NCBI GenBank assembly: GCA_964495355.1
Contig: CAZBVU010000003.1
Location: forward strand, 8,775-72,774
DNA: 64,000 nucleotides
Reading direction: 5' to 3'
DNA from: an uncultured Oscillospiraceae bacterium
GTDB lineage: Bacteria; Bacillota; Clostridia; Oscillospirales; Oscillospiraceae
The first letter of the stretch is position 1; each line of letters starts with the position of its first letter. This document shows positions 8,358 through 39,900 of this stretch, piece by piece. The notes under the pieces were generated by a model. That model saw only the letters and a list, made by a program, of their open reading frames with translations, searched no databases and was not told the DNA's origin. Made by a program: the position numbers and the translations under genes.

Positions 8358-8362
8358 ACTTA

Positions 8363-8454: not shown

Positions 8455-8650
8455 ATTAAGCTTAGATATGTTACCACACCCAGCGGATATTGTCAAGCCC
8501 TTTTGCCCTCTTTTTACGATTTACTTTTTTATACTATTTGCTCACAATGTCTAGTAAAAATTTTTCTTACGTCCTTGATAAGGCAGGCGAAATACGCTAT
8601 AATACATCTATCGTTTATATTTATAAATATATAACATAAGGAGAACAAAA

Positions 8651-20414: not shown

Positions 20415-21770
20415 TTGAGTAAGACTGCTACTGTCTTAAATAAAATTGAGCATAACAAGGTGCTGCTGTACTCCGTCACGGCAGTGCTTTGCGTGTGCTT
20501 TGGAATTTTTGTGATACTGACGGCGGACAAGGTTAACGTATACTATCCTCTGCCCACGGCCATTATTTTCGGGGCGCTGCTGTTTTTGTCCATTGCGCTG
20601 GTTATCGCGCAAAACAGGTTTGACACACCCGCGCTCCTTATCGCGGCGGCGTGTCTTGCGTGTGTGGTGTTCTGCCGCGTGTGCCTTTTGTACTATGAAT
20701 CGCGCGACTATACGGCGTTTCTCGCCGACTGGGTGAAGAAGTTCTCTGCCATGTCGATAAAAGAGGCGCTTACAGAGCCTATCGCGAACTACAATATGCC
20801 CTACCTCTATTTTCTGCTCATCTTCTCCCGTCTTGAGCTGTCGCCCATTATCACGATTAAGGCGCTGTCCTGCTTTTTTGACGTTATCCTCGCCTACTAT
20901 GTGATGAAAACCGTCTCCCTCGTCATAGAGGACAGGCGGCTTCAGTTGGCAAGCTATATTGTCGCGCTCGGCATACCCAGCGTGCTTATGAACTCGGCAC
21001 AGTGGGCGCAGTGTGACTCCATCTATGTCGCGTTTTGCGTGATATCTCTGTACGCGGCGATAAAGGGTGATGGGCGGCTGTGCGCAATCAGTTGGACGCT
21101 GTCGTTCTGCTTCAAGCTTCAGGCGATATTCGCACTGCCTGCGCTGTGCGTGGCGCTGTTCATGGGGCGCGTCAAGCCCAAGCACCTTTTGTGGATTCCT
21201 GTCGTGTTCTTCGCAACGCTTATCCCCGCAATGGTCGCGGGGCGCAGTCTTGGCAACTGCCTGAGCATATACGCAAACCAGACCCAGCAGTACCCCTCGC
21301 TTTACTCCAACGCGCCGACGATATGGCAGTTTTTCACCGGTGTTGACTTTGAGGGCTACAGCAATGTTACGGTGTTCCTCGCAGGTACGGCGGTGATACT
21401 GTTCATGTTCTTCACCCTGACCGGCGTTAAAAGCTTCAAGCCGGAGGATCTTATTCGGCTGTTCTTCATCTCCTCGCTGCTTGTGCCGTTTGTCCTGCCG
21501 AGAATGCATGAGCGCTACTTCTACATGGCGGATGTTATGAGCTTTATATACTTCATGACCAACCGCAAGAAGTGGTATATACCGGTGACGGTTATCATCT
21601 CCTCCGTTGTGGGGTATATCTGGTACTTCACCAGTGAGCCGAACCCGGGCATACTGATATTTGACCAGCGTTACCTCGCGCTGGCGCTGCTCGCCATCCT
21701 CGCGACAGAGCTGTATGAGCTTTTCCAGTCGTTCTGGCATAACTCCCCGGATCACATCGTCATCGAGTGA
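20415..21770 (+). CDS. polytopic membrane protein, GT-C-fold glycosyltransferase-like (DUF2029/PMT_2-like)
   Basis: 451 aa with more than 10 predicted TM helices. TTG start 8 nt after GAAGGTGA. Family assignment is tentative. Confidence 0.4.
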   Translation: MSKTATVLNKIEHNKVLLYSVTAVLCVCFGIFVILTADKVNVYYPLPTAIIFGALLFLSIALVIAQNRFDTPALLIAAACLACVVFCRVCLLYYESRDYTAFLADWVKKFSAMSIKEALTEPIANYNMPYLYFLLIFSRLELSPIITIKALSCFFDVILAYYVMKTVSLVIEDRRLQLASYIVALGIPSVLMNSAQWAQCDSIYVAFCVISLYAAIKGDGRLCAISWTLSFCFKLQAIFALPALCVALFMGRVKPKHLLWIPVVFFATLIPAMVAGRSLGNCLSIYANQTQQYPSLYSNAPTIWQFFTGVDFEGYSNVTVFLAGTAVILFMFFTLTGVKSFKPEDLIRLFFISSLLVPFVLPRMHERYFYMADVMSFIYFMTNRKKWYIPVTVIISSVVGYIWYFTSEPNPGILIFDQRYLALALLAILATELYELFQSFWHNSPDHIVIE

Positions 21771-21788
21771 TATAGGTAATATAGAAAA

Positions 21789-21821
21789 CCCCCAGTGCAA
21801 AGGTTAACCTTGCACCGGGGG
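21789..21821. repeat. palindromic hairpin, copy 1 (also the terminator of the GT-C-like gene)
   Basis: CCCCCAGTGCAAAGGTTAACCTTGCACCGGGGG followed by TTTTATTTTT. The same core recurs at 30978-31015. Confidence 0.85.
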
Positions 21822-21864
21822 TTTTATTTTTGAATTCAGCGCAGATATAGATATATAAAATCGA

Positions 21865-21906
21865 GGTATGGACACAATAGTAATGTCCATAAGTAATGTC
21901 CATACC
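21865..21906 (-). terminator. hairpin downstream of the ene-reductase gene
   Basis: Perfect 10-bp inverted repeat GGTATGGACA (21865-21874) / TGTCCATACC (21897-21906), with a T-rich run after it on the minus strand. Confidence 0.5.
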
Positions 21907-21940
21907 CCGAAATGAAAGGAATATTGTGAAAAGATATAGA

Positions 21941-23968
21941 TTAAAGATTCTTGCAGCGCAGATATGCAGCTCCTGTTGCATCACCTATACGACCAGGGTT
22001 AACACAGTCACCCAGAGCAATCACGTTGTCAAAATGCTCTTTGAGTGTGCTTACAAGCTTGCTTTCAGGTGCAATGCCGAGGGCGAGAACTGCTGCATCA
22101 ACAGCGATCTCATATGCGCTGGTGTGCTCATCTTCAACAACAGCGTCTGCAACCCCTGCGATATTTCTGATGCCGACAAGCGCAGTACCGATGAGATTGG
22201 TCTTGCAGGGTTCAACCACAACAGAACCATCTTTGATTTCCTTGAGCGCTGTGTTGGTCTTTATCTCAGCTCCCTTGCCCTCGAGAACACGTCTGGTTTT
22301 GCGGACATTATAGAAGTAAATTCCGTTTCCGATGACGGGTGACATTTCAATAACAGTGACCTTGTTTCCATCCTCTGCAAGGCGCTCAGCAGTTTCTAAA
22401 CCTGTCATGCCACCGCCGATAACAGCTACATGCTTACCGCTGAACTTTGTCACACCGTTGAGCACGTCAAAGCAGGGAACCCCCTTCTCAATTCCTGGGA
22501 TTGACGCAGGTGCGATAGGCCTACCGCCGCCAGCGTATATTACCGCATACGGATTAAGAAGCTTGAGCTGCTCCATACGTCCGGGAGTAATCTCATAGTT
22601 CAGACGCAACTCGATATTCGCACGCTTAGAAACCTGTACCTTATAGTAGGCAATAAGATTGTCCATGCGGAACTTGTTAGGCGCCTTGTTTGCAAGGTTA
22701 AGGCTACCGCAAAGTTCTTTTCTCTTATCGCATAGAACAACCTTGTAGCCTCTGTCAGCAAGCGTTAGCGCGGACTGAATTCCCGCAGGGCCTGCGCCAA
22801 TGATAACAACAGTGCCTTCACCCTTCTTGAGAGGGAGGAGATTGTCTATCTCGCGGCCAAGAGTGGGGTTGACAGCGCAGCGAATCTGTGATTCATCGGC
22901 AGTAACATGATGCACGCAAAAGTTGCAGTTTATGCACGGACGGATATCTTCAACGTGACCGGACTTAGCCTTGTTGCACCACTCGGGATCAGCGCTATGC
23001 TGGCGTCCCATAATGATGAAGTCCTGATATCCCTGTTCCAGTATCTTCTCTGCCTCATCAGGGTGCTTGACCTCGTTCGGTCCGTAGATGGGGATTTTCA
23101 GCGCTTCCTTGAATCGCTTGAAGTACTCATCGCGCCAACCTGCCTTCATGTCGGGAGCGCCGGTTCTATCCTCAGTTCCGATGGAGAAGTGAATAGCGTC
23201 CACGCCATTCTTTTCAAAGTACTGTGCGATCTCGATATAATCGTCAATTGTCAGATCCCCCTCAAAGCCCTCATCATCAAGGATGTGCAGGCGTATGGTT
23301 ACGGGGAAGTTCTTCGGCGTTTTCTGACGAATCTTCTGAATAGTCTCAACGACTATGCGGCAGCGGTTTTCCATTGAACCACCGTATTCATCAGTTCTCT
23401 CGTTACGCACAGGGCTTATAAACTGATGCATCAAAAACCAGTGTGCACAATGGATCTCAACGCCATCCACGCCCGCGATATATGCATGCTCTGCCGCAGA
23501 AGCAAAGCAATCCTCAAGCTCGTGAATCTGCTCTACGGTCAGCTCACGGCAGGTATCAAAGCCGCGCTTTGCAAGCTGAGACGGGAGGGCTGTTGCGGAG
23601 AAGGGAATATGTCCATCATTAAAAACAGGACGTGATTTACGCCCGGGGTGATTGAGCTGGACAAAGCACTTTCCTCCGTACTCATGCACTCTGTCGGCTA
23701 ATACGCTGAAAGCACGTCTGTCGTGCAGATTGCGCAGGAAGCATTGACCCGGCTTTGCCACGCCGCCAAGCTCAGGGCCACACACGCCTACATAGCCAAC
23801 TATGACCAGACCCGTGCCGCCTTTGGCCTTGGCCGCATAATACTCTATAGCGCGGTCAGATATTTCACCTGTCGCACCGCTCAGATCATCGTCCATAGGA
23901 GAAAGTATAACTCTGTTGCTCAGGGTCAAACCGCCTATTTTTCCTTCTTCAAAGATTTTCTCGTACAT
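21941..23968 (-). CDS. 2-enoate reductase / 2,4-dienoyl-CoA reductase-family flavoenzyme (OYE-like FMN barrel + 4Fe-4S + FAD/NAD(P) domain)
   Basis: 675 aa. N-terminal OYE-type barrel (LSNRVILSPM..., FVQLNHPGR, HCAHWFLMHQFISP). Cys cluster RPCINCNFCVHH...RCAVNP. Rossmann motifs VVIIGAGPAGIQSAL and VAVIGGGMTGLE. Confidence 0.8.
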   Translation of the reverse strand: MYEKIFEEGKIGGLTLSNRVILSPMDDDLSGATGEISDRAIEYYAAKAKGGTGLVIVGYVGVCGPELGGVAKPGQCFLRNLHDRRAFSVLADRVHEYGGKCFVQLNHPGRKSRPVFNDGHIPFSATALPSQLAKRGFDTCRELTVEQIHELEDCFASAAEHAYIAGVDGVEIHCAHWFLMHQFISPVRNERTDEYGGSMENRCRIVVETIQKIRQKTPKNFPVTIRLHILDDEGFEGDLTIDDYIEIAQYFEKNGVDAIHFSIGTEDRTGAPDMKAGWRDEYFKRFKEALKIPIYGPNEVKHPDEAEKILEQGYQDFIIMGRQHSADPEWCNKAKSGHVEDIRPCINCNFCVHHVTADESQIRCAVNPTLGREIDNLLPLKKGEGTVVIIGAGPAGIQSALTLADRGYKVVLCDKRKELCGSLNLANKAPNKFRMDNLIAYYKVQVSKRANIELRLNYEITPGRMEQLKLLNPYAVIYAGGGRPIAPASIPGIEKGVPCFDVLNGVTKFSGKHVAVIGGGMTGLETAERLAEDGNKVTVIEMSPVIGNGIYFYNVRKTRRVLEGKGAEIKTNTALKEIKDGSVVVEPCKTNLIGTALVGIRNIAGVADAVVEDEHTSAYEIAVDAAVLALGIAPESKLVSTLKEHFDNVIALGDCVNPGRIGDATGAAYLRCKNL

Positions 23969-24001
23969 AGCTTGTTCCTTTCAGTGGTATTGTATCGGGT
24001 T

Positions 24002-24916
24002 TTATTTTTTTCCGCCTGTCTGATCATAAGATGATTTTGCGGGTCTAGTCTTAAAGTACCATCCGAATACCTCGGGCACCTGCTGCATAAGCTCATCAAG
24101 TGTCCACTTCTCATAGTTGCCCTTGTGCATGCTACCGAGAACCTTTCTGTCTCTGGGATAAATGCCGATGTCAGTGCCGCCAATATAGAAGAGTTCACCT
24201 GTGCACTCGCACTCTTCGCTGCAAAGATATGCCGTCATAGGTGCAGGCATATCCGCAGTGGAGGGCCAAGGGCTGGGTACACCGCCGTAAGCCGGCTTGT
24301 GTGCGTTCGGAAAGAGGCGTGACTGCGCTGCTGGGAGAACACAGTTAACTCTGAAATCGCCGCAGTCAAGAAGCTCAAGCGCAAGTTCAGAGCAGAAACC
24401 GATGACGCCGGCCTTGCCTGCACTGTAGCAGCAGGAATTCGTCGGGGAATCGGGGTTGCCGAATGCGCCGCGAGATGCGTAGGCCACGATTCTGCCGTAC
24501 TTCTGCTGCTTCATGTACTTAACAGCAAAGTGGCATATGTTATAGCACTGCTTGAGGTTAATGTTAACGCATTTATCGAAGTCGGATTCAGGCATTTCAT
24601 CTATTTTGCCGCGGATAGTTGTGCCGGCAATAAGACAGACAATGTCTATCTTACCGTAAGCATTGATTGCGGTGTTTACAACATGCTCGCCACCGGAAAG
24701 CACCGAAATATCGGAGCAATCGGGGGTTGCTTCGCCGCCCGCAGCTATAATGTCGTTTGCAACGCGAACCGCGTCAGGAATACCGTTCTCGCTCCAAACG
24801 CCGATGTCGTTCACGACAACCCTTGCCCCCTCCGCAGCCAGAAGTCTGGCAACTCCTTCACCCATACCGTTGCCGCCGCCGGTTACGAGGGCAACTTTAC
24901 CATCAAATTTTCCCAT
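24002..24916 (-). CDS. short-chain dehydrogenase/reductase (SDR) family oxidoreductase
   Basis: GKVALVTGGGNGMGEG cofactor motif and YSAGKAG catalytic YxxxK. 304 aa. Sits 33 nt upstream of the ene-reductase on the same strand. Confidence 0.85.
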   Translation of the reverse strand: MGKFDGKVALVTGGGNGMGEGVARLLAAEGARVVVNDIGVWSENGIPDAVRVANDIIAAGGEATPDCSDISVLSGGEHVVNTAINAYGKIDIVCLIAGTTIRGKIDEMPESDFDKCVNINLKQCYNICHFAVKYMKQQKYGRIVAYASRGAFGNPDSPTNSCCYSAGKAGVIGFCSELALELLDCGDFRVNCVLPAAQSRLFPNAHKPAYGGVPSPWPSTADMPAPMTAYLCSEECECTGELFYIGGTDIGIYPRDRKVLGSMHKGNYEKWTLDELMQQVPEVFGWYFKTRPAKSSYDQTGGKK

Positions 24917-25148
24917 GAGTAATACTCCTTTGTTTTGCTGTTGATTTAGTCTTTTTTCTTGAATCTACTCACATTTTGCCAAAATCATATTATCATAAGC
25001 AAAGGTCTTATTGAATTACAAATATGTGATATTACTATCAATAATTTTACTAATCTGCACGTTCGAGGAGGATAGTTCACTAATTGACAATCTTCTCTTG
25101 ATGCTGTATCATAATATAAATAACATGTAATTCTAATGAGGTGATTGA

Positions 25149-26030
25149 GTGGAGACCGATAAGCTACGTTTGCTGATTGAAACCGTCAATATGAAAAGCA
25201 TAAACCGTGCTGCGGAAAAGCTTGGGCATACGCAGTCAGGCCTTACTTATAATCTCAACACGCTTGAGGATGAGCTCGGGATAAAAATTCTCGAACGCGC
25301 CCATAGCGGGATAACCCTATCTGAAGAAGGGCAGAAGCTCATGCCGCTTATAAAAGGCATTGTTGAGCAGGAGGATATGCTGAAGGGCACAATCCGCTCA
25401 CTCAATCAGGCAAAGAAAGAAAGTGAGCATATCCGCATCGGCTCATATTCAAGTATCGCTGACAACATTTTGCCGGATATACTCAAGAAATTCCGCACCA
25501 AGTACCCCAACACGTATTTTGAAATCCGCGTTGGCGGGCCACGAATACTCCAGTGGCTGGATAATGACGAGATTGACCTTGCTCTTATTGACGGTACTAT
25601 TGCCGCAGGATACAAATGGGTGTTTTTGTGCGAAGATGAAATAAAGTGCGCATACCCATCCAGTGTAGAGTTCACAAAAGACAAACCTGCTTTGTCACAG
25701 TTGATTGACAAATACCCCATCATATTTCCCTCGCTCAACATGAAAAGCGACGTTATGGAACGGCTCAGAGCTGCCGGTTACGAAGAAAGTGACATGAAAC
25801 TTTCTGTTTCCTCTGAGCATGGTTTGAGTTTGCTTTCTATGGTGAGCAGTGAACTCGGGATAACCTTCGTTTCACAGTTGTACGGGCGCGACTGTCCTGC
25901 AAATGTAGGCTTATGCTCATTAGAGCCTAAGCTTAACCGCTCACTAGGCTATATAATCAATGCAAAGTGTCAAAACTCAAAGTCAATAAAGCGTCTTTGC
26001 AAAATGATCGAAAAAGAGATGAGTGTGTAA
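25149..26030 (+). CDS. LysR family transcriptional regulator
   Basis: HTH LRLLIETVNMKSINRAAEKLGHTQSGLTYNLNTLEDELGIKILER. 293 aa. GTG start. Divergent from the SDR/ene-reductase operon. Confidence 0.85.
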   Translation: METDKLRLLIETVNMKSINRAAEKLGHTQSGLTYNLNTLEDELGIKILERAHSGITLSEEGQKLMPLIKGIVEQEDMLKGTIRSLNQAKKESEHIRIGSYSSIADNILPDILKKFRTKYPNTYFEIRVGGPRILQWLDNDEIDLALIDGTIAAGYKWVFLCEDEIKCAYPSSVEFTKDKPALSQLIDKYPIIFPSLNMKSDVMERLRAAGYEESDMKLSVSSEHGLSLLSMVSSELGITFVSQLYGRDCPANVGLCSLEPKLNRSLGYIINAKCQNSKSIKRLCKMIEKEMSV

Positions 26031-26060
26031 GATATTCTGATACATCTACAAATTTATAAT

Positions 26061-26103
26061 AGCAAAAAGTCATAGAGGCGATTTGCTTCTATGACTTTTT
26101 GCT
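26061..26103. terminator. bidirectional terminator between the LysR (+) and MFS (-) genes
   Basis: Perfect 16-bp stem AGCAAAAAGTCATAGA / TCTATGACTTTTTGCT with an 11-nt loop. Confidence 0.8.
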
Positions 26104-26135
26104 ATTATTATGCTATATTTATTCCATTGTGAGCA

Positions 26136-27368
26136 TTAAAGTTTGTCAACAGGCTTAACCTTGGGCATTGCGAGAAGCAGTGCAAGACCAATAACTGCAG
26201 CCGCAATTGCAACATAGAACGCACCATTGAAGGAGCCGGTGGCCGCTCTTATAGAGGCAGTTATAACGCCGGAGAGCAGACACGTGATCGTAGACACGAC
26301 AGCAGACAGACCAACAAAAATTGAACCGCTCTTTGCACCGAAATTGTTCACGCACAGTGTGCCATAAACCGGAGTACGTCCGCCGTAACCGAATGCAAGC
26401 AGGAAGAACATGATGAGTACTGCCGCACTGCTTTGTGCGAAAAGAAGAACAATGCATCCAACTATTGACGCGCCGCAGGCAATTGCAAATGTGGGCTTAT
26501 CGCCAAGCTTATCAGCAAGTACGCCGCAGATAAGACGACCGGAGAACTGGCCTATACCAAGTGAAGCAACAACCGTAACAGCAAACTCCGGTGTAAGCGC
26601 CTTAACATCTGTGACGAAAACAGTGACATAAGAGCTGATGAAGTTATACGGGATGCAGAGAAGGAGCTGTGCAATGCAGAACATCCAGAAAGACGATGTT
26701 TTCAGGCCCTCAGCTCTGGAAACAGCCTTGGTCTCTGCGCTGATTTCCTTGGGCACATAGCCTTCAGGCTTCCAACCAGCAGGAGGATCACGCATGATGA
26801 AAATAACAATCAGCATGAGGACGACGAAGTAAACACCGCCCAGAAGCATAACTGTGCATTTAACGCCAATTGCAGCGAGGAGAGAGGAAACCGGCTTGGA
26901 CATTATCGTGGTGGATAGCCCGAAAGTGCCGAGGAATATGCCCATGATTATACCGCGCTTATCGGGGAACCAGCTAGCTATAACGAACATCATGGAGTTA
27001 TAAAGTATACCAGAGCCTACGCCTGCGATTATACCCCAGGTGATGTACATAAGCACAGGAGAAGTGACGAACGATGAAATAAACATAAATCCGCCATACA
27101 TAATCGTACCGATGAGGCCGCACTTCTTTGCGCCGAGAACCGGCAAAAGCTGACCACCGGTAAACGAACCAACGCATAGAGCCGCAACCATCACATTACC
27201 CATAACTGCCACGGAGTCTACAGACCAGCCGTAGTATTCGCACATAGGCTTAACGAAAAGACTCCATGTGTAGAGCAAACCTATGAACAGCGCTATTATA
27301 ATTCCACTTACCAAAACCAGATAACGATATCCGGAAGAGGGCTGGAATTCAATTTTATTTTCAGACAT
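26136..27368 (-). CDS. MFS transporter (oxalate/formate antiporter-like subfamily)
   Basis: 410 aa with 12 TM helices. FPDKRGIIMGIF loop motif typical of OFA-type MFS proteins. Confidence 0.75.
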   Translation of the reverse strand: MSENKIEFQPSSGYRYLVLVSGIIIALFIGLLYTWSLFVKPMCEYYGWSVDSVAVMGNVMVAALCVGSFTGGQLLPVLGAKKCGLIGTIMYGGFMFISSFVTSPVLMYITWGIIAGVGSGILYNSMMFVIASWFPDKRGIIMGIFLGTFGLSTTIMSKPVSSLLAAIGVKCTVMLLGGVYFVVLMLIVIFIMRDPPAGWKPEGYVPKEISAETKAVSRAEGLKTSSFWMFCIAQLLLCIPYNFISSYVTVFVTDVKALTPEFAVTVVASLGIGQFSGRLICGVLADKLGDKPTFAIACGASIVGCIVLLFAQSSAAVLIMFFLLAFGYGGRTPVYGTLCVNNFGAKSGSIFVGLSAVVSTITCLLSGVITASIRAATGSFNGAFYVAIAAAVIGLALLLAMPKVKPVDKL

Positions 27369-27411
27369 TATATAGTCCTCCAGTTATATTTTTGTCGTTT
27401 AATTATGTCGT

Positions 27412-28215
27412 TTAATTATAAAAATCAGGTGCTTTTTTCAAAGTGTCAAACTGTGCTTGATCATGGCCGAAGAAGACAGTTGCATTTGTCGCGTTTTGAA
27501 GCTTGCGTATACGCTCAATAGAGGCGTAGTAATTCTGCGGGTCGGCAAGAATACCGGTCGGTCGTGCGGGAGGGCCATAGTTTATACTCGTGTTGCATGC
27601 ATCACCTGCAATGATGACAGTACCGTTGTTCTCCAACTCAACCTGAAGTCCTTGGAAGCCGTCACTGTGGCCGGGCAGAGCAAGACATTTCACGCCATTT
27701 ACAACCTCGTAATCACCATCCAGCAGTACCCAGGTAGCATCAACATCCACATCTGCACGCAGATATACGCCCATTGGGTCTACCGTGTGCGTGAACATGA
27801 GAGCCTGCTGCATTTCCGCACGCTGGACGAGAACCTTTGCATTTTTGAATATGCCGATTTTCCCTGCATGGTCATGGTGCAGGTGGCTCATTATAACATA
27901 GTCGATCTCCTCAGGTTTTACGCCGCACAGAGAAAGCTGATATTCCAGATTCTGACCCTCTGCAAAGGAAATAGGTGTGTTCAACGCAACTCTGGGGCCT
28001 TCACCGCCGCTGAGACAGTCCTCTCTCAATCCGGTGTCAAATACGATCTTGGCCTCAGGAGTCTCAATGTAGTATGCAACAACCGGAAACGGTTTGAATT
28101 GCAGCTTAGGTTCAGGATCCTCTGAGGTAGCCCGCACATAGAGCGCGATAAGCGAATTCATGTCACAGGTGATTGAGCCGAGGCTTAATACATGCAGCTT
28201 AATTGACTTGTCCAT
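27412..28215 (-). CDS. MBL-fold metallo-hydrolase, lactonase-like (paralog 1)
   Basis: HxHxDH motif (MSHLHHDHAG), LPGHSDG, GHD. Start moved to the ATG at 28215 (MDKSIKLHV...), preceded by GAAGGAGAG; the ORF is open to 28284. Confidence 0.8.
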   Translation of the reverse strand: MDKSIKLHVLSLGSITCDMNSLIALYVRATSEDPEPKLQFKPFPVVAYYIETPEAKIVFDTGLREDCLSGGEGPRVALNTPISFAEGQNLEYQLSLCGVKPEEIDYVIMSHLHHDHAGKIGIFKNAKVLVQRAEMQQALMFTHTVDPMGVYLRADVDVDATWVLLDGDYEVVNGVKCLALPGHSDGFQGLQVELENNGTVIIAGDACNTSINYGPPARPTGILADPQNYYASIERIRKLQNATNATVFFGHDQAQFDTLKKAPDFYN

Positions 28216-28471
28216 AATTCTCTCTCCTTCTTCTTTTTGTTTTCTATAAGGCAGCCAAGGCTTGATATATCCCGCTTTTGGCAAAATGTGAGATGTGGCC
28301 GCCTTGATTGTCTAAAATCTATCATTATTCGAGCTTAATGTAAACCAGCAAAAATTTGATATCACTATAAAATATTTTCTATTCCATCGCGAGCCGCAAT
28401 TTGTTAACATTCAGTCAATCGAATGTGCTATAAGTGTACAGCGGTAAATAAAAAGAGAGGAGCGTGTAGCT

Positions 28472-28624
28472 TTGGTAGTCTCATTCTGGTCATGGTTCTG
28501 GCTAGTAGGTGCTAGATTGATTATTGTGATTGCTTCAATAATCTGTACCGTTTTTTGCATTTATGAGGGGAAGTCTGTAGAGCGTCGTTATCCGAATAAC
28601 GATGACTGGTACTGGACCTTTTGA
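28472..28624 (+). CDS. small (50 aa) single-TM protein, putative symporter accessory subunit; not in the ORF track
   Basis: TTG start 9 nt after GAGAGGAG. Hand translation: (M)VVSFWSWFWLVGARLIIVIASIICTVFCIYEGKSVERRYPNNDDWYWTF*. The TGA stop overlaps the ATG of the symporter gene (TGATG at 28622-28626). Confidence 0.5.
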   Translation: MVVSFWSWFWLVGARLIIVIASIICTVFCIYEGKSVERRYPNNDDWYWTF

Positions 28625-30141
28625 TGGAGGTGCACATGATGAATAATGCCAGCATAGCATGGCTGATAATCGGGGCATATCTAATAATCAATATTATTGT
28701 TGGCAACATCGTTAACCAACGAGAGAAAAAGCGCGCCTCAAACGGAAACTATTATCATTCCAACCTCCCCGCAATAGTAGTCGCCCTTGCGAGTACCGGT
28801 ACGGCAATAAGCGGCGTTGCCTTTATAGGGACGCCTGCAACTACCTTCACTGACGGCATAAGCGTTTGGTCATTGAACGCTATTGGCGGTATGATAGGTA
28901 TACTCATGGGTACACTCCTTATCGGAAAGCCTATGAAAGCCATGAATAACCGTCTGCACACGACCACACTTGCCGATTTGCTGATGGTATTATATGATGA
29001 TACGCGTGTACGCTTTATTTGTATTTTGACCATGCTGGTTGCAGGTACAGTGTATACTGCGGTTCAATGGCAGTCGCTCGGGACTATACTAAACTCACTC
29101 CTCGGTTTTGAGTATATCCCCGCTGTGCTGATCGGAGTTGTTGTAGTTTCGCTATACAGCGTGCTGGGCGGAAATAAGAGCACCGCCATTGTGGGCGCAG
29201 TGCAGATAGGCATAGCCATGATTGCATGCATCTACATTTTCAGCAAGGCCCTTCAGGTCAACGGCGGTGGGTTTGGCAAGCTTATAACCGATGTTCAAAC
29301 CGTCAAGCCAGAAATGCTGGAAATGAAAACTTCCAGTTTAAGTTTTCTTATAATGTATGGTATCGGGTACATGGGGCAGCCTGCCATTGCCGTGCGTTAT
29401 TTTCAGCTTGAGGATGCGAAAAAGCTACCTAAGACGACCTTGTATTGTGTTCTTTCCACGCTCATAACCACTCTTGTGCCAGTTGTTGCGCTAACACTGA
29501 CAGTGCAGATTGCAAAGGGAAATGTCCCCGCTCTTGCGAATCCTGAAAACTGCACAATGGCATTTATAACTCACTTCTGCGGGCAGGGTGCAAGTGGACT
29601 AATTATTTCAGCGTGTCTCGCTGCAATCATGTCAACCGGTGCATCTCTAACGATAAGCGTCAGCAGTACATTGGTCAAAGACCTGCTCTCTGATGCTTTG
29701 AAAGTCGATATGTCCGGCAAAAAAGAGGCTATATACAGCCGCGCAGGAACTGTTTTGATAATTGTTGTGAGCACACTTGTGGCCTGCTTCCCCGTGGGTG
29801 GCATATTGCAGGTCGGCTTCTCTGCTTATGGTGCTTTCGGCGCTGTATTTGCCCCTGTGCTGATTATGGGATTACGTTGGCGCAGGCACACAAAACAAGG
29901 TGCATTCTGGGGCATGCTTTCTGCAGCAATGACTGTTGTTGTGTTCACAACTCTCGATAGCACTGGTATTTATCCATGGCCACTTGAAATCCATGTGTCT
30001 GTAATTGCAATGGCAGTTCACTTTGCCATAGGTATAGCCATCAGTCTTTTGACACCCGCACAGGAAAAGCCATTCCTCCCTCCAACAATGAGAGATCTGA
30101 AAGATAGCGCTGTGATATCCTGTTCAAACAAAGAAAGGTAA
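28624..30141 (+). CDS. sodium:solute symporter (SSS) family transporter
   Basis: About 505 aa with about 13 TM helices, typical SSS layout. Alternative starts at 28636/28639 follow GGAGG. Confidence 0.8.
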   Translation: MEVHMMNNASIAWLIIGAYLIINIIVGNIVNQREKKRASNGNYYHSNLPAIVVALASTGTAISGVAFIGTPATTFTDGISVWSLNAIGGMIGILMGTLLIGKPMKAMNNRLHTTTLADLLMVLYDDTRVRFICILTMLVAGTVYTAVQWQSLGTILNSLLGFEYIPAVLIGVVVVSLYSVLGGNKSTAIVGAVQIGIAMIACIYIFSKALQVNGGGFGKLITDVQTVKPEMLEMKTSSLSFLIMYGIGYMGQPAIAVRYFQLEDAKKLPKTTLYCVLSTLITTLVPVVALTLTVQIAKGNVPALANPENCTMAFITHFCGQGASGLIISACLAAIMSTGASLTISVSSTLVKDLLSDALKVDMSGKKEAIYSRAGTVLIIVVSTLVACFPVGGILQVGFSAYGAFGAVFAPVLIMGLRWRRHTKQGAFWGMLSAAMTVVVFTTLDSTGIYPWPLEIHVSVIAMAVHFAIGIAISLLTPAQEKPFLPPTMRDLKDSAVISCSNKER

Positions 30142-30144
30142 AAA

Positions 30145-30918
30145 ATGAAAATGAAAGTATATTTACTTGACCTAGGCTGGATGGAAGCTGACCGAAACTA
30201 TATGTTTGCAGGTGCATCCCGTGGCTCCGTTGATGATAAAAATGCAGCAAATATATGGGGACGCGTTCCAATCGAGCGGGCATATATAGACCACCCTATG
30301 GGTAAAATAATGATAGACGCAGGTGTTAACAAATGCCTCTGCTCTTCAAAGCTTAATCCTTACGTTCACACGAAGGAACAGACCCTTGATTATCAGCTTT
30401 CTCTATGCGGTGTTACGCCAGAGGAAATAGATTACCTCATTGTCACTCATATGCATGTTGATCATATTGGGCAGATAGACAGATTCAAAAATGCCAAGGT
30501 AATCGTCCAGCGCAGTGAGCTACATCAAGCTCTGTTTGCAACCCACACTAATTCAGATCATTCCTTTATACGCGAGGACGTAGATGTTGCAGCAGATTTC
30601 ATGATTTTGGATGGCGATTATCAACTTGCCGAGGATATCCGTCTCATACATCTTCCTGGGCACACCGACGGCCAGATGGGTGTCATTCTGACCTTGAGTG
30701 ATGGAAACTATATATTCACCTCTGACGCAGTCAACACTGCGGAGTCTTATGGTCCACCTGCTGTGGCACCTGCAAAAGCGCCATGGGATTCTCGCGCTTG
30801 GCGTGCCTCGGTTGAAAAGGTTCGCCGCCTTGCAGCTGAATATAACGCAAAAATAGTTTTCGGTCATGATCAAAACCAGTATTTCAAACTTAAAAAAGCA
30901 CCTGCGTATTACGAATAA
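30145..30918 (+). CDS. MBL-fold metallo-hydrolase, lactonase-like (paralog 2)
   Basis: VTHMHVDHIG, LPGHTDG, GHD. Clearly paralogous to 27412-28215 (DYQLSLCGVTPEEIDYLIV... versus EYQLSLCGVKPEEIDYVIM...). Confidence 0.8.
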   Translation: MKMKVYLLDLGWMEADRNYMFAGASRGSVDDKNAANIWGRVPIERAYIDHPMGKIMIDAGVNKCLCSSKLNPYVHTKEQTLDYQLSLCGVTPEEIDYLIVTHMHVDHIGQIDRFKNAKVIVQRSELHQALFATHTNSDHSFIREDVDVAADFMILDGDYQLAEDIRLIHLPGHTDGQMGVILTLSDGNYIFTSDAVNTAESYGPPAVAPAKAPWDSRAWRASVEKVRRLAAEYNAKIVFGHDQNQYFKLKKAPAYYE

Positions 30919-30977
30919 CAGTTCTCTAATATTCTTATATAATACCTGCGGACGTTGATTTATTCATAAACGAACAA

Positions 30978-31015
30978 CCCCCCCAGTGCAAAGGTTAACC
31001 TTGCACTGGGGGGGG
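30978..31015. repeat. palindromic hairpin, copy 2 (terminator shared by MBL paralog 2 and rpsR)
   Basis: CCCCCCCAGTGCAAAGGTTAACCTTGCACTGGGGGGGG followed by TTATTTTA. The core is identical to 21789-21821 apart from one stem base and the C/G-run lengths. Confidence 0.85.
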
Positions 31016-31034: not shown

Positions 31035-31274
31035 TCAGTCGGTCACGTAGGGCAGAAGAGCGATCTGACGGGATCTCTTTATTGCCTCGGTGAGCTCACG
31101 CTGATGCATTGCGCAAACACCGGTCGTGCGGCGGGGCAGGATCTTGCTGCGCTCGGAGAGATAGCGCTTAAGCTTTACAGTGTCCTTATAGTCGATGGAC
31201 GTAGCCTTGTCGACACAGAACTGGCAAACTTTTCTGCGCTTGCGGTTTTTGGGGTTGTTCTTATCGAAAGCCAT
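31035..31274 (-). CDS. rpsR: 30S ribosomal protein S18
   Basis: 79 aa. KVCQFCVDK...DYKD...[42 protein letters not shown]. Confidence 0.95.
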
Positions 31275-31332
31275 TAGCTGATTCCTCCTGTTAGATTTTT
31301 TTGCGGGCGGCGGTCACACCGCCATTGCCCAA

Positions 31333-31779
31333 TTAGAACGGCAGATCGTCATCGCCATCATCAAGCTCTTCAAACGTGCTTGATGCGGGAGCGCTGCTCC
31401 TCGCGGCATCGTAGCTGTAGCTTGCGTGGCCGGTACTGCCGGAGTCACCATCGCGGCGGCGACTCTCGCCAAAATAGATATTGTCAGCAACTATTTCCCA
31501 ATTGACGCGATTATTACCCTCGCGATCCTGCCATTTGCGGGATTGCAGTCTGCCGGAAACGACCGCCATACTGCCCTTGGCGAAATACTTATTGACAAAT
31601 TCGGCTGTCTGGCGCCATGCAACGCAGTCGATAAAATCGGTCTGCCTCTCGCCGCCGTCACGCGAAGCAAAGTCGCGGTCAACAGCAACAGTGAACGACG
31701 CCACGGGGGTCTGGGACTGGGTATACCGCATTTCGGGATCCCTTGTCAGACGACCCATAATAACAATGTGATTAAGCAT
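31333..31779 (-). CDS. ssb: single-stranded DNA-binding protein
   Basis: OB-fold N-terminus MLNHIVIMGRLTRDPEMRYT and an acidic tail ending DDDLPF. Confidence 0.95.
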   Translation of the reverse strand: MLNHIVIMGRLTRDPEMRYTQSQTPVASFTVAVDRDFASRDGGERQTDFIDCVAWRQTAEFVNKYFAKGSMAVVSGRLQSRKWQDREGNNRVNWEIVADNIYFGESRRRDGDSGSTGHASYSYDAARSSAPASSTFEELDDGDDDLPF

Positions 31780-31791
31780 GATCCGCTCTCC

Positions 31792-32088
31792 TTACTCTGC
31801 GCGCAGGGTTATCAGACGACGCAGAATGCCATCGGTGATACCGAGAACACGGTCAAGCTCAGCAGGGAAATCAGCACCGCTGGTGAACTTCATCAGCACA
31901 TAGTAACCCTCAGAAATGTAGTTGATCTCATAAGCGAGCTTGCGCTTGCCCATTTCCTCCAACTCTTCCAGAGTACCATTTGCCTCAACAAGTGCCTTGA
32001 ACTTCTCAACAACAGCTGCGGTCTCTTCCTCAGTGAAGTTGGGGTTGATAATGTACATTACTTCGTACTTCTCACTTGCTTTTGCCAT
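31792..32088 (-). CDS. rpsF: 30S ribosomal protein S6
   Basis: 98 aa. YEVMYIINPNFTEEE...GKRKLAYEI. First gene of the canonical rpsF-ssb-rpsR operon. Confidence 0.95.
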   Translation of the reverse strand: MAKASEKYEVMYIINPNFTEEETAAVVEKFKALVEANGTLEELEEMGKRKLAYEINYISEGYYVLMKFTSGADFPAELDRVLGITDGILRRLITLRAE

Positions 32089-36584: not shown

Positions 36585-36800
36585 GGTGCAAATTGAATAG
36601 CCGCTGCGGTGCGAAGCGCTTACGCGCAGAGCCTAACAAGGAATCCGGTGTGAATCCGGAGCAGTCCCGCTGCTGTATATGGTGACGATGGCATATTAAA
36701 CCACTGAGATATTATTCTTGGGAAGGTTTGCCGGAGGATGAGCCATGAGTCAGAAGACTTGCCGCAATGGCTGAAAGTCAACCGTCCCGAGGAGGATGAG
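36585..36800 (+). promoter_or_regulatory. cobalamin (B12) riboswitch aptamer
   Basis: Conserved core GGAATCCGGTGTGAATCCGGAGCAGTCCCGCTGCTGTA (36640-36677). CCACTG...TGGGAAGG (36701-36726). B12-box-like AGTCAGAAGACTTGCC (36748-36763). Confidence 0.85.
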
Positions 36801-36813: not shown

Positions 36814-36890
36814 AAGCACAGAGAAATCTGTGCTTGGGTTTGTGTTGCGTCATAGTCTCCATCTCTCACGGGAATGGAGATTTTTCATTT
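36814..36890 (+). terminator. riboswitch expression platform with two candidate attenuator hairpins
   Basis: AAGCACAG-AGAAAT-CTGTGCTT followed by GGGTTTGTGTT (36814-36846). TCTCCAT-(11 nt)-ATGGAGA followed by TTTTTCATTT (36856-36890), immediately before RBS GGAGGA and the ATG at 36902. Confidence 0.55.
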
Positions 36891-36901
36891 GGAGGAACAC
36901 C

Positions 36902-39900
36902 ATGAAAAAACGCATTACCTCTCTTGCACTGGCGCTGATAATGCTGTGCGGCATGATGCCCATGGGCGCATTTGCCGACGATGCTGTGCCGGTGGAAACC
37001 GTCGTTATCGAAACACCGCCCCTCTCTGTCGAGCCGGAGCTCACCCCCGCACCCGCTCCCACGCCTGCATCCGAGTCGGAATCCACCCCCGCGCCCGCTA
37101 CAAGTGCAGAACCTGCACCGGACGCAGAATCTACCGTTGAACCTGTGCCAAGTGCAGAGCCGACAGTTGAGCCTACACCTAGCGCCGAACCCACGCCTAG
37201 TGCAGAAGAAGATGACGCAGATGATGAAATCGCGCTGCTTGGCGGTATTTCCACCTACGCACTGAGCGCATTTGATGAGTCCCTGCTCAACGGCATCCCC
37301 GCCGCGGCAAGCAACTCCGGCTGGAAAAGCGACGGCAGCATGATAGTGTCTGGCAATAAGGGGCAATTTTACAGCTCTGCCACGCTGACGCTGACATTCA
37401 CAACGGATGCGCATATATCTTTTCAGTACAAAGTCTCCTCCGGAAGAAGTGATTATTTTTCCGTCAAGCACAACTCAACGGCTATAGTCAACAATGTATC
37501 CGGTGTTACCGACTGGGTCGGCGTTGCCGTTGATGTGAAGGCAGATGATACCCTCACGTTTGTCTACAGAAAGGGCGGCAACTACAGCACCGGCGTTGAT
37601 GACCGCGCATATCTCACCGGCTTTTCTGCGGGTGAGCCCACTGTAGTCACATTCTACGCCAACAACGGGACTGACGACAGCACCACGCAGAACTTCTACG
37701 GCACAGCCGCGTTGAATGCAAACACATTCACCAAGGATCACGCCGTGTTTGATGGCTGGGCACTCACCGCTGATGGTGAGAAGAAGTATGACGACAAAGA
37801 GACCATAGATAAGCCCACCGAAGCACTTAGCCTGTACGCACTGTGGGCAGATGCAAAGGTCGTCAGCTTTTATAACGGGACAGGCGGGCTTATCGCGTCC
37901 GTAAACATCCGCACCGGCAGTGCCATCCCCGTTGACGCTATTCCCTCGCCTGCAAGCAACGGATATATATTCTCCGGCTGGCGCGTTGACGGCGCGGAAT
38001 TCAACACTGCCGCGCCGATAACAGCAGATATCACCCTCACCGCCGCGTGGACGCCCATCGAATACACTGTGCGCTTCTCGGCCAACAACGGCGCGGGCAG
38101 TATGGCCGATATGGCCGGTCTGAAGTACGGCGAAAGCTATTATCTGCCCAAGTGCAGCTTTGCCAGAGAGGGTTATACTTTTGCCGGCTGGGGCAGCTCA
38201 TCTTACACCAGCACCGCTTCATACGCTGATGAAGCGGCCGTTTCAAACCTCAGTTCCACAAACGGCGCAGTCGTTACGCTGTACGCTGTGTGGTACGGCA
38301 AGCAGGTGCCGGTCACGGTCGATCTGAACTATGACATTGAAAACCGCGTAAGCACACGCACCTGCGTTGTAGGTCAAAACTACAACTACATCTACAACGA
38401 GGCAACCGGCAGCGCAAAGTATTCATCGCTTTCCGACCCGAAGCGTGACGGATACAGATTCCTCGGCTGGTACACCGCCGCAGAGGGCGGGGATAAAATC
38501 ACCACCTCGGATAAATTCACCTCTACTGACGCTGTGACCATGTATGCCCACTGGGTAAAGACCGTCACCATAACATTTGATGCAAACGGCGGCAGCTGCT
38601 ACACCAAAACAAAGGTCATAGATGAGGGCAGTACCTGCTCCGGCTTGCCCTCGGCAAGTCTCAGCGGCAAGACCTTTATCGGCTGGTTCACCGAGATAGA
38701 CGGCGGCCAGCAGGTAACTACCGACACGACCTTTACCACCGACACTATCCTTTATGCGCACTATAAGAACAAGCAGTACATATTAGTGTTCAACGCGAAC
38801 GGCGCTGACGGTGAGATGGAGAGCATCACCGCAGATTCCGGCGTTGAATATACCCTCCCGCCCTGCTCTTTCACGCGTGACGGGTATAATTTCAAGCACT
38901 GGTCAACCTCCTCTTACGATTCAAGCTACTCCACGCGCTATTCCGACGGCGGCACGATAGAATACACCGCAAGCTATGATAACGCGAGATATAACCTATA
39001 CGCCATATGGGAGCAGACGGTTTTCGGCAAGGCGTTTGACGCGATAAAAGCCGCCCTGCCTGATAATAACACCGTTTACACCACCGGTGCACTGAAGCTC
39101 CCCTCCGGCGGTGATGGTTGGAGCGTGGAGTACAGCAGCGATAACAGCAGCTATATAAGCTCCACCGCCGAGGTTCTCACTCTCCCCACCAGCGGCACAA
39201 AAGCCGTCACCATAACCGCGACAGTGACTGACACCGCAAACGGCACAAGCCAGACGCGCGATTACACCCTCACGCTGTACTCTGCCGAGGCAAAACAGGC
39301 CGAGGACACGCTGAAAGAGGCGCTGGGCAAGCTGACAGGGAATTTCACGCCGGTATATGGCACAGATAAAAACGCCTGCCGCGCGCTGGAAGCCCTTCTT
39401 GAAAGCAAGGGCTATGAGGGTATACGCGTGTCCGTGAAAACTCCCGCCGCCGATGATTGCGCGTCTATCGCCGCCGATGGTACTATAAGCTATCATTTTG
39501 ATGACAAAATGACCGGCAGTGACTCCTATCTGCGGCCGGTATACTCTTTCACGCTGTCCGGCGTGACACTGGATAAGGAGCTTCAAACCCGCCTGACATG
39601 GGATCTGGGCAAGGCGCAGGCGCGCATTGATGCACTCGCCGCGTCAATCACCGTCCCCAAGGAGCTTTCAGCCGATGATACGCTGACGCTGCCGAAATAT
39701 CAGCTAAAATCCGGTATTGACCCTGACACTGCCGATTACAGCGATTACACGCAGTTTGACTCATGGGCAACCATCACCTGGGCAGCCGCAGACGCAAGCG
39801 GTGAGGACAGCGAAATACTGAAAATCGGCGCATCCGGCGGCAGCTCCGGCTATTACGCGCCGCACACCGTCACCATCGCGCAGCCGAAAGACGATACCAA

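Follow-up and report, generated by a model that had tools for sequence, protein, structure and literature searches.

The window analyzed here is a stretch of 64,000 nt from an uncultured Oscillospiraceae bacterium (assembly GCA_964495355.1, contig CAZBVU010000003.1, positions 8,775 to 72,774, forward strand). A 33-nt hairpin, CCCCCAGTGCAAAGGTTAACCTTGCAC(C/T)GGGGG, is present in this window exactly twice, in direct orientation, and the two copies (H1 and H2) bracket a block of seven genes located between a gene for a membrane protein and the rpsF-ssb-rpsR operon. The features of the locus are as follows.

20415-21770, + strand: left flanking gene, a 451-aa polytopic membrane protein without a family match; homologues in Oscillospiraceae MAGs
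21789-21821, no strand: H1, CCCCCAGTGCAAAGGTTAACCTTGCACCGGGGG, predicted bidirectional terminator of the 451-aa gene; attL-like left junction
21822-30977, no strand: inserted block, 9156 nt, not present in conspecific contigs with the empty site (blastn)
21867-21891, - strand: the reductase-SDR operon's own intrinsic terminator within the block, a 9-pair stem with a T-rich tail
21941-23968, - strand: two-domain FMN/FAD reductase, 675 aa (OYE-like Oxidored_FMN and Pyr_redox_2; FadH/BaiCD class)
24002-24916, - strand: short-chain dehydrogenase/reductase (SDR), 304 aa, by domain match
25149-26030, + strand: LysR-family regulator, 293 aa, oriented divergently to the SDR-reductase operon
26056-26108, no strand: internal AT-rich palindrome with 24-nt arms, 96% complementary; terminator-like, between the convergent LysR and MFS genes
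26136-27368, - strand: MFS transporter, 410 aa; best NCBIfam match of the L-lactate/oxalate-formate type, under the curated cut-off
27412-28284, - strand: MBL-fold lactonase-like hydrolase, a 290-aa ORF (267 aa in public gene calls)
28621-30141, + strand: sodium:solute symporter family (SSF) transporter, 506 aa, by domain match
30145-30918, + strand: second MBL-fold lactonase-like hydrolase, 257 aa, reading into H2
30978-31015, no strand: H2, CCCCCCCAGTGCAAAGGTTAACCTTGCACTGGGGGGGG, predicted bidirectional terminator common to the 257-aa gene and rpsR; attR-like right junction
31035-32088, - strand: right flanking operon rpsF-ssb-rpsR (rpsR 31035-31274, ssb 31333-31779, rpsF 31792-32088)

The block is a compact module comprising a regulator, enzymes, and transporters. 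The best PDB matches of the reductase are 2-naphthoyl-CoA reductase (6qkg) and 2,4-dienoyl-CoA reductase (1ps9), and those of the 257-aa hydrolase are GcL and AiiA-type lactonases; a predicted role in taking up and degrading a lactone or enoate-type compound is plausible. All seven ORFs are metabolic, transport, or regulatory, and none encodes a recombinase, a transposase, or a function in transfer. The intergenic gaps of 105-336 nt in the block contain no decayed integrase or transfer-gene remnant, so the block shows no visible descent from an ICE or IME. The GC content of the block is 0.467, compared to 0.529 in the remainder of the window and 0.505-0.552 in all 9.16-kb windows outside the block, and mean GC3 is 0.494 in the seven block genes and 0.617 in the other ORFs (Mann-Whitney p = 6e-5). 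The lower GC and GC3 suggest a foreign origin. A preliminary description of this DNA had pointed to a compositionally distinct, patchy block without an integrase or transposase; the deviation is present but modest (46.7% versus 52.9%), the left 3 kb (the reductase and SDR genes) have approximately 50% GC, like the flanks, and no integrase or transposase was found in the block or among approximately 50 window ORFs scanned.

In structure and position, the hairpin fits a bidirectional intrinsic (Rho-independent) terminator. Both copies fold strongly on both strands (-26 to -35.5 kcal/mol, z-scores -5 to -6.8) and have T-rich tails on both strands. H1 lies between the convergent 451-aa ORF (+) and reductase gene (-), and H2 between the convergent 257-aa lactonase-like gene (+) and rpsR (-), in agreement with the earlier proposal that H2 is common to the last block gene and rpsR. 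A terminator scan found no terminator belonging to the 257-aa gene itself between 30918 and H2. Both copies still stand where the neighboring genes need a predicted terminator. The 451-aa ORF on the + strand is a real gene, as homologues with 58-78% identity are present in Oscillospiraceae MAGs. Its product had been named GT-C-like, a name that could not be confirmed by any sequence match in Pfam, NCBIfam, or PDB.

The hairpin consists of 12-bp inverted arms around a 9-bp spacer, 33 bp in total. A repeat search assigned both copies to a single 33-nt direct-repeat family with 97% identity and a spacing of 9191 nt, and a search allowing up to 3 mismatches returned two matches in the 64 kb (21790-21820 and 30981-31011), compared to 0.00 expected from shuffles. 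The copies differ at one stem base, where CACC in H1 produces an A.C mismatch and CACT in H2 allows full pairing, and in their run lengths, C5/G5 in H1 and C7/G8 in H2; in all of these respects the preliminary description was accurate. Palindromic G+C-rich elements of such size are common dispersed repeats in many bacteria, so the two copies could be coincidental members of a REP/MITE-like or "mobile terminator" family, a possibility also raised in that description. This is the least probable of the explanations we considered. The window contains no third copy, half-sites occur in it at chance level, and the hairpin had no hits in 185,579 GTDB species genomes, in JGI metagenome contigs, or in IMG/VR. 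In addition, the homologous gene in related species is followed by unrelated terminators, and the empty alleles described below contain exactly one copy, at exactly this place. A separate candidate, an integron gene cassette with the hairpin as attC, was rejected: the loop GTTAACC does not fit GTTRRRY, there is no integrase in the window, and the seven genes of the block lie in both orientations and have promoters of their own.

Other strains of the species lack the block. Five conspecific contigs (L001, L002, L003, L007, and L008), with flanks 96-99% identical to the window, have the order 451-aa gene, one hairpin, rpsR, and their blastn alignments leap from window position ~21821-21830 to ~30976-30980. 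The single hairpin is likewise placed between the 3' ends of convergent genes. The empty junction in L001 is not a repeat-collapse artefact, given that this contig is from a k=141 assembly. L008 encodes an identical 451-aa protein, and the 1 kb to the left of its hairpin has 2 differences from the window; the left flank of H1 is identical to that of this empty allele, and the right flank of H2 continues as in the empty alleles. A contig from a sister lineage (L099), in which the 451-aa protein is 87% identical and third-codon identity is 0.60, also contains one homologous hairpin between the 451-aa gene and rpsR. The one-hairpin state of five conspecific contigs and one sister-lineage contig indicates that this state is ancestral and that the block is an insertion. 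We therefore conclude with high confidence that the block was inserted at an ancestral single terminator, so that the hairpin is now found on both sides. The block is a strain-variable accessory island inside a terminator that is common to the 451-aa gene and rpsR in other strains. The empty site that the preliminary description expected thus exists, and all of the refuting conditions it named, when checked, gave outcomes in favor of its interpretation. Of its proposal of insertion with target duplication, the insertion stands; the second hairpin may be either a duplicated target or an element-borne, attP-like copy. No sampled empty allele has exactly the G-run and T-tract that follow H2 on its right side (G8 TTATTTT); no simple model yields this junction without extra mutations in the hypervariable homopolymer region right of H2. 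Separately, a third allele at the locus (L004-L006) diverges within ~4 nt of the rpsR-side hairpin base.

A second block lineage (L011-L016 and L025-L027) contains the same seven genes in the same order. The two block lineages have 80-94% DNA identity, uniform along the block (~10% diverged), and a third-codon identity of 0.72-0.79, compared to 0.93-0.99 among conspecific strains. The L011 homologue of the reductase-operon terminator has an 11-bp stem. The first 30 nt of the 9149-nt L011 contig are the same as its last 30 nt and correspond to the hairpin, with a different loop base. Because 30 nt equals k-1 for a k=31 assembly, this overlap is equally expected of a repeat-bounded chromosomal segment, and no circular form of the block was observed. 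Both window copies have the loop allele GGTTAACC, which the nearest empty alleles (L008 and L003) also have; both L011 ends have GGTCAACC. The hairpins of the L011 lineage are flanked on the block side by sequences that are perfect inverted complements of each other (AACAATCAAAA / TTTTGATTGTT), so a circular junction in this lineage would be one long hairpin; the inverted repeat matches at 11/11 positions in the L011 lineage and at about 6/13 in the window. A 70%-identical version of the module on two further contigs (L019 and L020) is in a mobile context, adjoining a large serine recombinase and a MobC/NikA-like gene, and the L019 module beside the serine recombinase is without the window's hairpin.

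The age of the two lineages bears on whether the block has any dedicated mobility. One interpretation is that it entered once, long ago, by an illegitimate event, after which the allele moved between strains by homologous recombination in the flanks and was lost by deletion between the repeats. The block lineages are far older than the divergence of the strains (0.72-0.79 versus 0.93-0.99) yet have identical gene content and ends, mobility genes are absent from the block and the window, and immediately to the right of H2 the window departs from the closest empty allele despite near-identical flanks, which fits an H2 imported together with the block. We nevertheless consider this interpretation unlikely. 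It leaves the origin of the second hairpin copy unexplained, and empty alleles are found in at least 4 divergent conspecific lineages and the sister lineage, which would require many independent deletions if the filled state were old. Nor is L008 a recent simple deletion of a window-like allele, as different sequences follow the L008 hairpin and H2 on the right.

Our preferred explanation for the whole, to which we assign a probability of roughly 0.45, is an accessory island in a terminator that integrated by hairpin-by-hairpin recombination of a circle, with the enzyme acting in trans, in the manner of a CIME. The island would arrive as a circle containing one hairpin copy, which in the circle would terminate the 257-aa gene. 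Conservative site-specific recombination between this hairpin and the chromosomal hairpin, by a recombinase supplied in trans, would generate attL-like and attR-like copies, as with a cis-mobilizable element or a floxed cassette. The direct copies would also permit precise loss of the block, restoring a one-hairpin site, and the filled allele, once in the species, could spread by ordinary homologous recombination in the flanks. It is plausible that one hairpin copy was carried by the element, given that the reductase operon has a dedicated terminator and the 257-aa gene has none, and that a circular junction in the L011 lineage would form one long hairpin. The mixed pattern of the copies is consistent with this: on its left H1 has native features (C5) and on its right a non-native half (CACC), and H2 has a non-native left half (C7) and the native CACT, a pattern that a crossover at the hairpin center would produce. 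Scans of the block, the 64-kb window, and both block lineages revealed no recombinase that could use the hairpin as its site, and the same loop variant in both copies of each lineage is a pattern that a true target duplication would give too.

Alternatively, the second hairpin could have been generated by a transposition-like insertion with a long target-site duplication, the block being a non-autonomous, MIC-like element whose enzyme is encoded elsewhere. In this scenario, the hairpin or cruciform would be cut in a staggered manner at its two bases, the block (linear or excised, with short inverted repeats at its termini) would be joined to the cut ends, and gap repair would then double the entire 33-37 bp palindrome. 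This is formally the same as a CRISPR repeat at spacer integration, a casposon target, or the target of a long-duplication insertion sequence. The duplicated unit is indeed the hairpin (33 nt, or at most ~37 nt if the shared AA and TT are counted), the loop allele is shared by both copies in each lineage (GGTTAACC in the window, GGTCAACC in L011), the 11-bp perfect inverted repeat of the L011 lineage abuts the copies on the block side in the classic layout of a terminal inverted repeat next to a target-site duplication, and the breakpoint of the L004-L006 allele also lies at the hairpin base. We regard this alternative as improbable, to the same degree as entry without dedicated mobility. Duplications longer than 30 bp are rare among known transposases, and neither the block nor the window contains a transposase or Cas1 homologue. 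The inverted repeat is only partly matched in the window and may be lineage-specific or accidental. Furthermore, a search of 1.28 Mb of related loci yielded no further insertion with a duplicated hairpin; the sole other hit was a CRISPR array.

A further alternative is an IMEX-like Xer/dif module, in which the hairpin would serve as the chromosome's dimer-resolution site or its mimic and the host's XerC/D-type enzymes would insert and remove the block, accounting for the missing integrase. A palindromic site of ~30 bp with two arms and a central spacer, an element without an integrase, and a raw cumulative GC skew that peaks near 18 kb are consistent with this idea. It is very improbable, however, because the hairpin is unlike the conserved XerD-arm motif, dif-like patterns elsewhere in the window are distant hits at chance level, and GC3 skew calculated per gene, which separates coding-strand from replication effects, does not change sign at the site, although 64 kb is a short stretch in which to place a replication terminus. 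In addition, the site has the features of an ordinary G+C-rich terminator stem with T tails.

We speculate further that the terminator hairpin doubles as the insertion site for a class of integrase-less operon cassettes, a broader proposal that we consider doubtful. In one version, a chromosomally encoded recombinase would treat the hairpin as a simple site of the lox or dif type; in the other, an integrase would attack both hairpin bases and duplicate the palindrome in the fashion of a CRISPR repeat. If this proposal is true, terminators would be landing pads for swapping metabolic modules among gut Oscillospiraceae, with every insertion re-establishing termination for the neighboring genes. 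More generally, if the hairpin is a recombination site or preferred target, intrinsic terminators would constitute a type of attachment site that has been overlooked, and terminator-bounded, integrase-less islands would become searchable in metagenomes. If the block is only an att-flanked islet in decay, it represents an ordinary, though well-documented, case of strain-level accessory gene content. In this uncultured lineage of gut Oscillospiraceae, the locus captures gene gain as a fully resolved natural before-and-after pair: filled and empty alleles are near-identical up to the junction, a complete seven-gene module has been added between two housekeeping transcription units with neither disturbed, and the sole structural footprint is a second terminator hairpin.

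The block shares features with several known systems. As in CRISPR spacer integration and casposon insertion, a palindromic unit of ~30 bp is doubled around the insert, as would result from attacks at both borders; the analogy is one of geometry only, as the insert is 9 kb compared to ~30 bp and there is no cas1 or casposase, array, or leader. Like MICs and long-duplication insertion sequences, the block consists of passenger genes without a transposase between direct target repeats, with 11-bp inverted repeats at its ends in the L011 lineage. In contrast to those elements, the duplication measures 33-37 bp, much longer than their usual 2-14 bp, the inverted repeats of the two lineages differ (11/11 versus about 6/13 matching positions), and no related insertion sequence was seen. 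IMEX elements and the pdif modules of Acinetobacter similarly have no recombinase of their own and enclose their cargo between short two-arm palindromes, and a borrowed host recombinase would account for the missing integrase. Pdif modules typically have inversely oriented sites and are found on plasmids, whereas the hairpin copies are direct and chromosomal; moreover, the hairpin is not dif-like in sequence, and skew in the 64-kb window gives no evidence of a replication terminus.

In architecture, the hairpin (12-bp arms and a 9-bp spacer) resembles loxP (13+8+13), FRT, and dif, the simple sites of tyrosine recombinases, and the two direct copies bracket the insert like those of a floxed cassette, in principle excisable as a circle that leaves one copy behind. 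This resemblance is architectural only, as there is no Cre/Flp-like gene nearby and the predicted terminator role fully explains the hairpin sequence. The comparison with CIMEs, which have retained attL and attR and lost the genes for integration and transfer (PMC5704250), has limits as well: no cognate ICE or IME, or integrase using the hairpin site, was found, decayed mobility genes are absent from two lineages that differ at ~25% of third-codon positions, and the repeat is an entire palindromic intergenic terminator rather than the 3' end of a gene. Like a CIME, the block is bounded by directly repeated att-like sites (33 nt, 97% identity) for which one-site empty alleles exist, and it contains adaptive cargo without an integrase, relaxase, or transfer genes. 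It also lies just downstream of a ribosomal-protein gene, and IMEs of Firmicutes are often located at the 3' ends of such genes (PMC5704250).

Our analysis shows that the 9156-nt block at 21822-30977 is an accessory island that is variably present within its species, and that its insertion point is the terminator shared by the flanking genes, which now stands at either end of the insert; both flanking transcription units retain a terminator. The layout is as follows, with the lines for block genes summarizing the seven ORFs, which are separated by short intergenic gaps.

Features of the island and its boundaries
left flank, +, gene for a 451-aa membrane protein
21789-21821, hairpin copy 1, between the 3' ends of the 451-aa ORF (+) and the 675-aa reductase gene (-)
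21867-21891, terminator of the reductase operon, within the block
block gene, -, reductase: two-domain flavoenzyme of the FadH/BaiCD/OYE class (best solved relatives 2-naphthoyl-CoA reductase and 2,4-dienoyl-CoA reductase)
block gene, short-chain dehydrogenase (SDR)
block gene, LysR regulator, divergently transcribed
block gene, MFS transporter
block gene, first MBL-fold lactonase-like hydrolase
block gene, sodium:solute symporter
block gene, +, second MBL-fold lactonase-like hydrolase, 257 aa (best solved relatives GcL and AiiA-type lactonases)
30978-31015, hairpin copy 2, between the 3' ends of the 257-aa hydrolase gene (+) and rpsR (-)

Searches for proteins exactly matching RpsR and the 451-aa protein led to five contigs (L001, L002, L003, L007 and L008) in which the 451-aa gene and rpsR are direct neighbors with one hairpin between them. 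These contigs match the window at 96-99% DNA identity in either flank and so belong to the same species; their alignments skip from window position ~21821-21830 to ~30976-30980. L001 is a k=141 assembly, so its junction was spanned by real reads and repeat collapse is impossible. An independent 18-kb Logan contig also has the filled arrangement, at 100% identity to the window. The same gene pair occurs in the sister-lineage contig L099 (451-aa protein 87% identical, third-codon identity 0.60), with a single homologous hairpin, CCAGTGCAGGGTTTATCCTCTGCACTGG. The one-hairpin state is therefore older than the species, which makes the block an insertion. The preliminary description had proposed that a cassette entered an ancestral single terminator and that the hairpin was duplicated around it; the six one-hairpin contigs bear this out, with one copy in each empty allele and two in the window.

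An ancestral synteny of the 451-aa gene and rpsR in other species was considered and rejected, as only the sister lineage has the junction. In 17 related Oscillospiraceae MAGs (58-78% identity to the 451-aa protein), rpsR and the block genes were absent within 10 kb of the homologue, and the terminators that follow it are unrelated to the hairpin. By this comparison, the host is one of the uncultured Oscillospiraceae-type Clostridia. In several related Oscillospiraceae MAGs (L029, L031-L035), the ~1.3 kb that directly follow the 451-aa homologue hold a tandem paralogue (~49% identity); in the window's species the gene is single copy, followed by the hairpin and rpsR. A functional tie between the 451-aa gene and the block was also rejected, since the unannotated genes of 437 and 438 aa that L017 and L018 carry beside related reductases show no homology to the 451-aa gene.

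At finer scale, L008 encodes a 451-aa protein identical to that of the window, and has in common with it the private variant GGTAAT immediately left of the hairpin; across the neighboring 1 kb, just 2 positions differ. A recent simple deletion or insertion connecting the two was rejected because neither yields the G-run and T-tract right of copy 2; no simple version of any of the models considered below reproduces this G8 TTATTTT from the sampled empty alleles. The homopolymer/T-tract stretch right of the hairpin is evidently hypervariable, with four alleles among the five empty contigs.

A third allele at this junction (window ~31020) was found in three ENA samples (L004 1990-2168, L005 1800-2156 and L006 1050-1934). 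Immediately after '...TTGAGATAAA' downstream of rpsR, at the expected start of the hairpin, the sequence switches to unrelated DNA. This includes IS21-type end repeats and a gene for IstB, the IS21 helper ATPase, along with a possible 54-aa ORF and two further hairpins that resemble terminators. The rpsF-ssb-rpsR genes of L005 are just 86% identical to the window, yet it has the third-allele downstream DNA in common with the other samples. The junction at the rpsR 3' end thus resembles a hot spot where content varies.

Copy 1 reads CCCCCAGTGCAAAGGTTAACCTTGCACCGGGGG and copy 2 reads CCCCCCCAGTGCAAAGGTTAACCTTGCACTGGGGGGGG. A repeat search recovered them as a 33-nt direct repeat with 97% identity and a spacing of 9191 nt, and they were the only sites in 64 kb with ≤3 mismatches (shuffle expectation 0.00); the 10-nt arm alone occurs elsewhere in the window at chance level only. 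The single-base difference lies in the 3' arm, where C in copy 1 leaves an A.C mismatch and T in copy 2 gives full pairing, and the outer runs are C5/G5 in copy 1 versus C7/G8 in copy 2. RNA folding predicted stable hairpins for both strands of both copies (-26 to -35.5 kcal/mol), which 0 of 200 shuffles equaled. Given these strong folds, the T-rich tracts 3' of the hairpin on either strand, and the position of each copy between convergent 3' ends, both appear to be placed as bidirectional intrinsic terminators. Rfam gave no family match to the hairpins at gathering score, and over copy 1 only sub-threshold terminator-like matches. The layout consists of 12-bp inverted arms around a 9-bp spacer, and the arms, CCAGTGCA/TGCACTGG, are retained even in L099, so the stem is under constraint. 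A 454-aa ORF at 20436-21800 (-) runs antisense to nearly the entire 451-aa gene and crosses copy 1; it is most likely a non-coding shadow ORF, as public gene calls and homologues favor the + strand gene.

We also scanned for dispersed copies of the hairpin with exact and loop-degenerate patterns that included all observed loop variants. There were no matches in 185,579 GTDB species genomes, among whose representatives the window's own species is not included, and none in JGI metagenome contigs or IMG/VR. A genome-wide hairpin family is thus rejected as far as public data allow. In 1.28 Mb of related loci, the only other kb-scale segment between duplicated hairpins was a CRISPR-like array with repeat GTCGCCCCCCACACGGGGGGCGTGGATTGAAAT, located where a locus from a related Clostridia MAG begins (L062 42-480). 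The preliminary description's account of the hairpins, namely two copies differing by one stem base and C/G-run lengths, the first ending the 451-aa gene and the second common to the last block gene and rpsR, is upheld, and across the 64-kb window and the collections scanned the search for further copies found only the pair.

The block gene set would suit a role in taking up and degrading a compound of the lactone or unsaturated-acid type; family matches of the block proteins all fall far under curated equivalog cut-offs. No integrase, transposase, relaxase or replication gene was found in the block or among ~50 other scanned window ORFs, in line with the earlier observation that no integrase or transposase remains. 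Also as described earlier, the block is compositionally distinct and patchy. The deviation is modest: GC is 0.467 versus 0.529 outside, where no 9.16-kb window falls below 0.505, mean GC3 is 0.494 in block genes versus 0.617 in other ORFs (p = 6e-5), and the reductase-SDR end is near the host value. A plasmid or phage origin was rejected, as 7.9 kb of the block had no blastn match in PLSDB or INPHARED. The reductase operon has its own terminator within the block, overlapped at its 3' arm by an exact 13-nt tandem duplication (AGTAATGTCCATA x2, 21879-21904). Between the convergent LysR and MFS genes, a near-perfect AT-rich palindrome (26056-26108; 24-nt arms, 96% complementary, 5-nt spacer) is probably a further bidirectional terminator. 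The 257-aa gene has no terminator of its own and runs into copy 2.

We infer the mode of arrival, and three readings fit the observations. In the one we rank first, a hairpin on a circular form of the element would have recombined with the chromosomal hairpin by conservative site-specific recombination. The enzyme would have been supplied from elsewhere, as for a cis-mobilizable element (CIME), which keeps its att sites and no longer has the genes for integration and transfer (PMC5704250). The 12-bp arms and 9-bp spacer are the layout of loxP, FRT and dif, and the site closely follows a ribosomal-protein gene, as do those of many firmicute IMEs. An element-borne hairpin would give the 257-aa gene its missing terminator. 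The two copies also look chimeric, copy 1 having a native left half and a variant right half, and copy 2 a variant left half and a native right half. Against site-specific recombination, the block and the scanned window ORFs hold no recombinase or remnant of one, and no circle was observed. A dif/Xer version found no support in a scan for dif-like motifs or in per-gene GC3 skew.

A second block lineage, L011-L016, comes from another sample set and contains the closest reductase relatives (98% protein identity). Its seven genes are those of the window in unchanged order, and its block DNA is 80-94% identical, uniformly along its length. Third-codon identity is 0.72-0.79 between the block lineages, compared to 0.93-0.99 between conspecific strains and 0.60 to the sister lineage, so the split between block lineages is much deeper than that between strains and shallower than that from the sister lineage. 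This age suits a reading in which one old illegitimate event was followed by spread through homologous recombination in conserved flanks and by loss via deletion between the repeats. Such a history also suits the absence of mobility genes, but it leaves the origin of the second hairpin copy unexplained, and we place it behind site-specific recombination.

The ends of the second lineage bear on another alternative. L011 (9149 nt) has the same 30 nt of hairpin at its start and end, with loop GGTCAACC at both, and the remaining contigs of its lineage all end inside the hairpin; this block either has the hairpin at each end or is circular with a single copy. Circularity was not accepted from the identical 30-nt ends, since the overlap equals the assembler's k-1 and fits a circle and a repeat-bounded segment alike. 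On the block side, the flank that follows the left copy, TTTTGATTGTT, is the perfect inverted complement of the one that precedes the right copy, AACAATCAAAA. These flanks may represent terminal inverted repeats of 11 bp beside a target duplication, or the halves of a circular form's long hairpin; under site-specific recombination, they would make one long hairpin in a circle. A long target-site duplication from staggered cleavage at both hairpin bases would account for a duplicated unit that coincides exactly with the hairpin, for loop alleles identical in both copies in both lineages, and for these inverted repeats. However, such a duplication length is unusual, the enzyme is absent, and the inverted complementarity is not kept in the window's copy. 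We consider this explanation about as probable as the illegitimate event. Between lineages the hairpin differs by one loop base, and the adjoining intergenic DNA is just ~80% identical. The 13-nt tandem duplication is missing from the L011 lineage.

More distant versions of the module have different surroundings and lack the hairpin: L017 (reductase 89% identical at the protein level), L018 (reductase 70%), L097/L098 (lactonase-like protein 78%, reductase 86%) and L019/L020 (lactonase-like protein 70%). The last two are ~159-kb scaffolds whose first 18500 nt hold a version 65-70% identical, comprising MFS, aldo-keto reductase, MBL hydrolase, LysR, reductase, Fe-ADH, TauE, SSF and MBL hydrolase genes. 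Directly adjoining it are the gene for a large serine recombinase of 613 aa and genes for an AAA_14 ATPase, an HTH protein and a MobC/NikA-like protein. This arrangement suggests that in other Clostridia the module moves together with integrative mobilizable elements.

Elsewhere in the window, 46358-50764 holds a cluster of LysR, NMT1_3 and DctM-fusion (TAXI/TRAP-type) transporter genes. A related NMT1_3 and DctM pair (5669-8546) lies next to the reductase homologue in L017, and a 209-nt stretch of it shows 70% identity to window 49517-49725. Upstream of 36830-42271 there is a cobalamin riboswitch (Rfam RF00174, 111.7 bits; 36590-36780, +). The protein encoded at 36830-42271, 1813 aa long, combines Listeria-Bacteroides repeats with an atrophied Ig domain and DUF4430, and may be a B12-regulated surface protein.

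It seems doubtful to us that terminator hairpins are landing pads for integrase-less operon cassettes. From our comparisons, this island appears to work like an att-flanked, integrase-less islet. It resembles a CIME in part, through its direct repeats, empty allele and lack of mobility genes; full membership would also call for an origin in an ICE or IME and for a known integrase acting on the site. Our comparisons do not place it among dif modules, integron cassettes or, as far as public data allow, REP/MITE families, and its hairpin is like lox-type sites, and like the duplication of CRISPR repeats, in geometry alone. Compared to these systems, the island is unusual in that the repeated unit appears to be a complete bidirectional terminator, in that two lineages with ~25% third-codon divergence, both without mobility genes, retain the same ends, and in that a precise ancestral empty site is documented.
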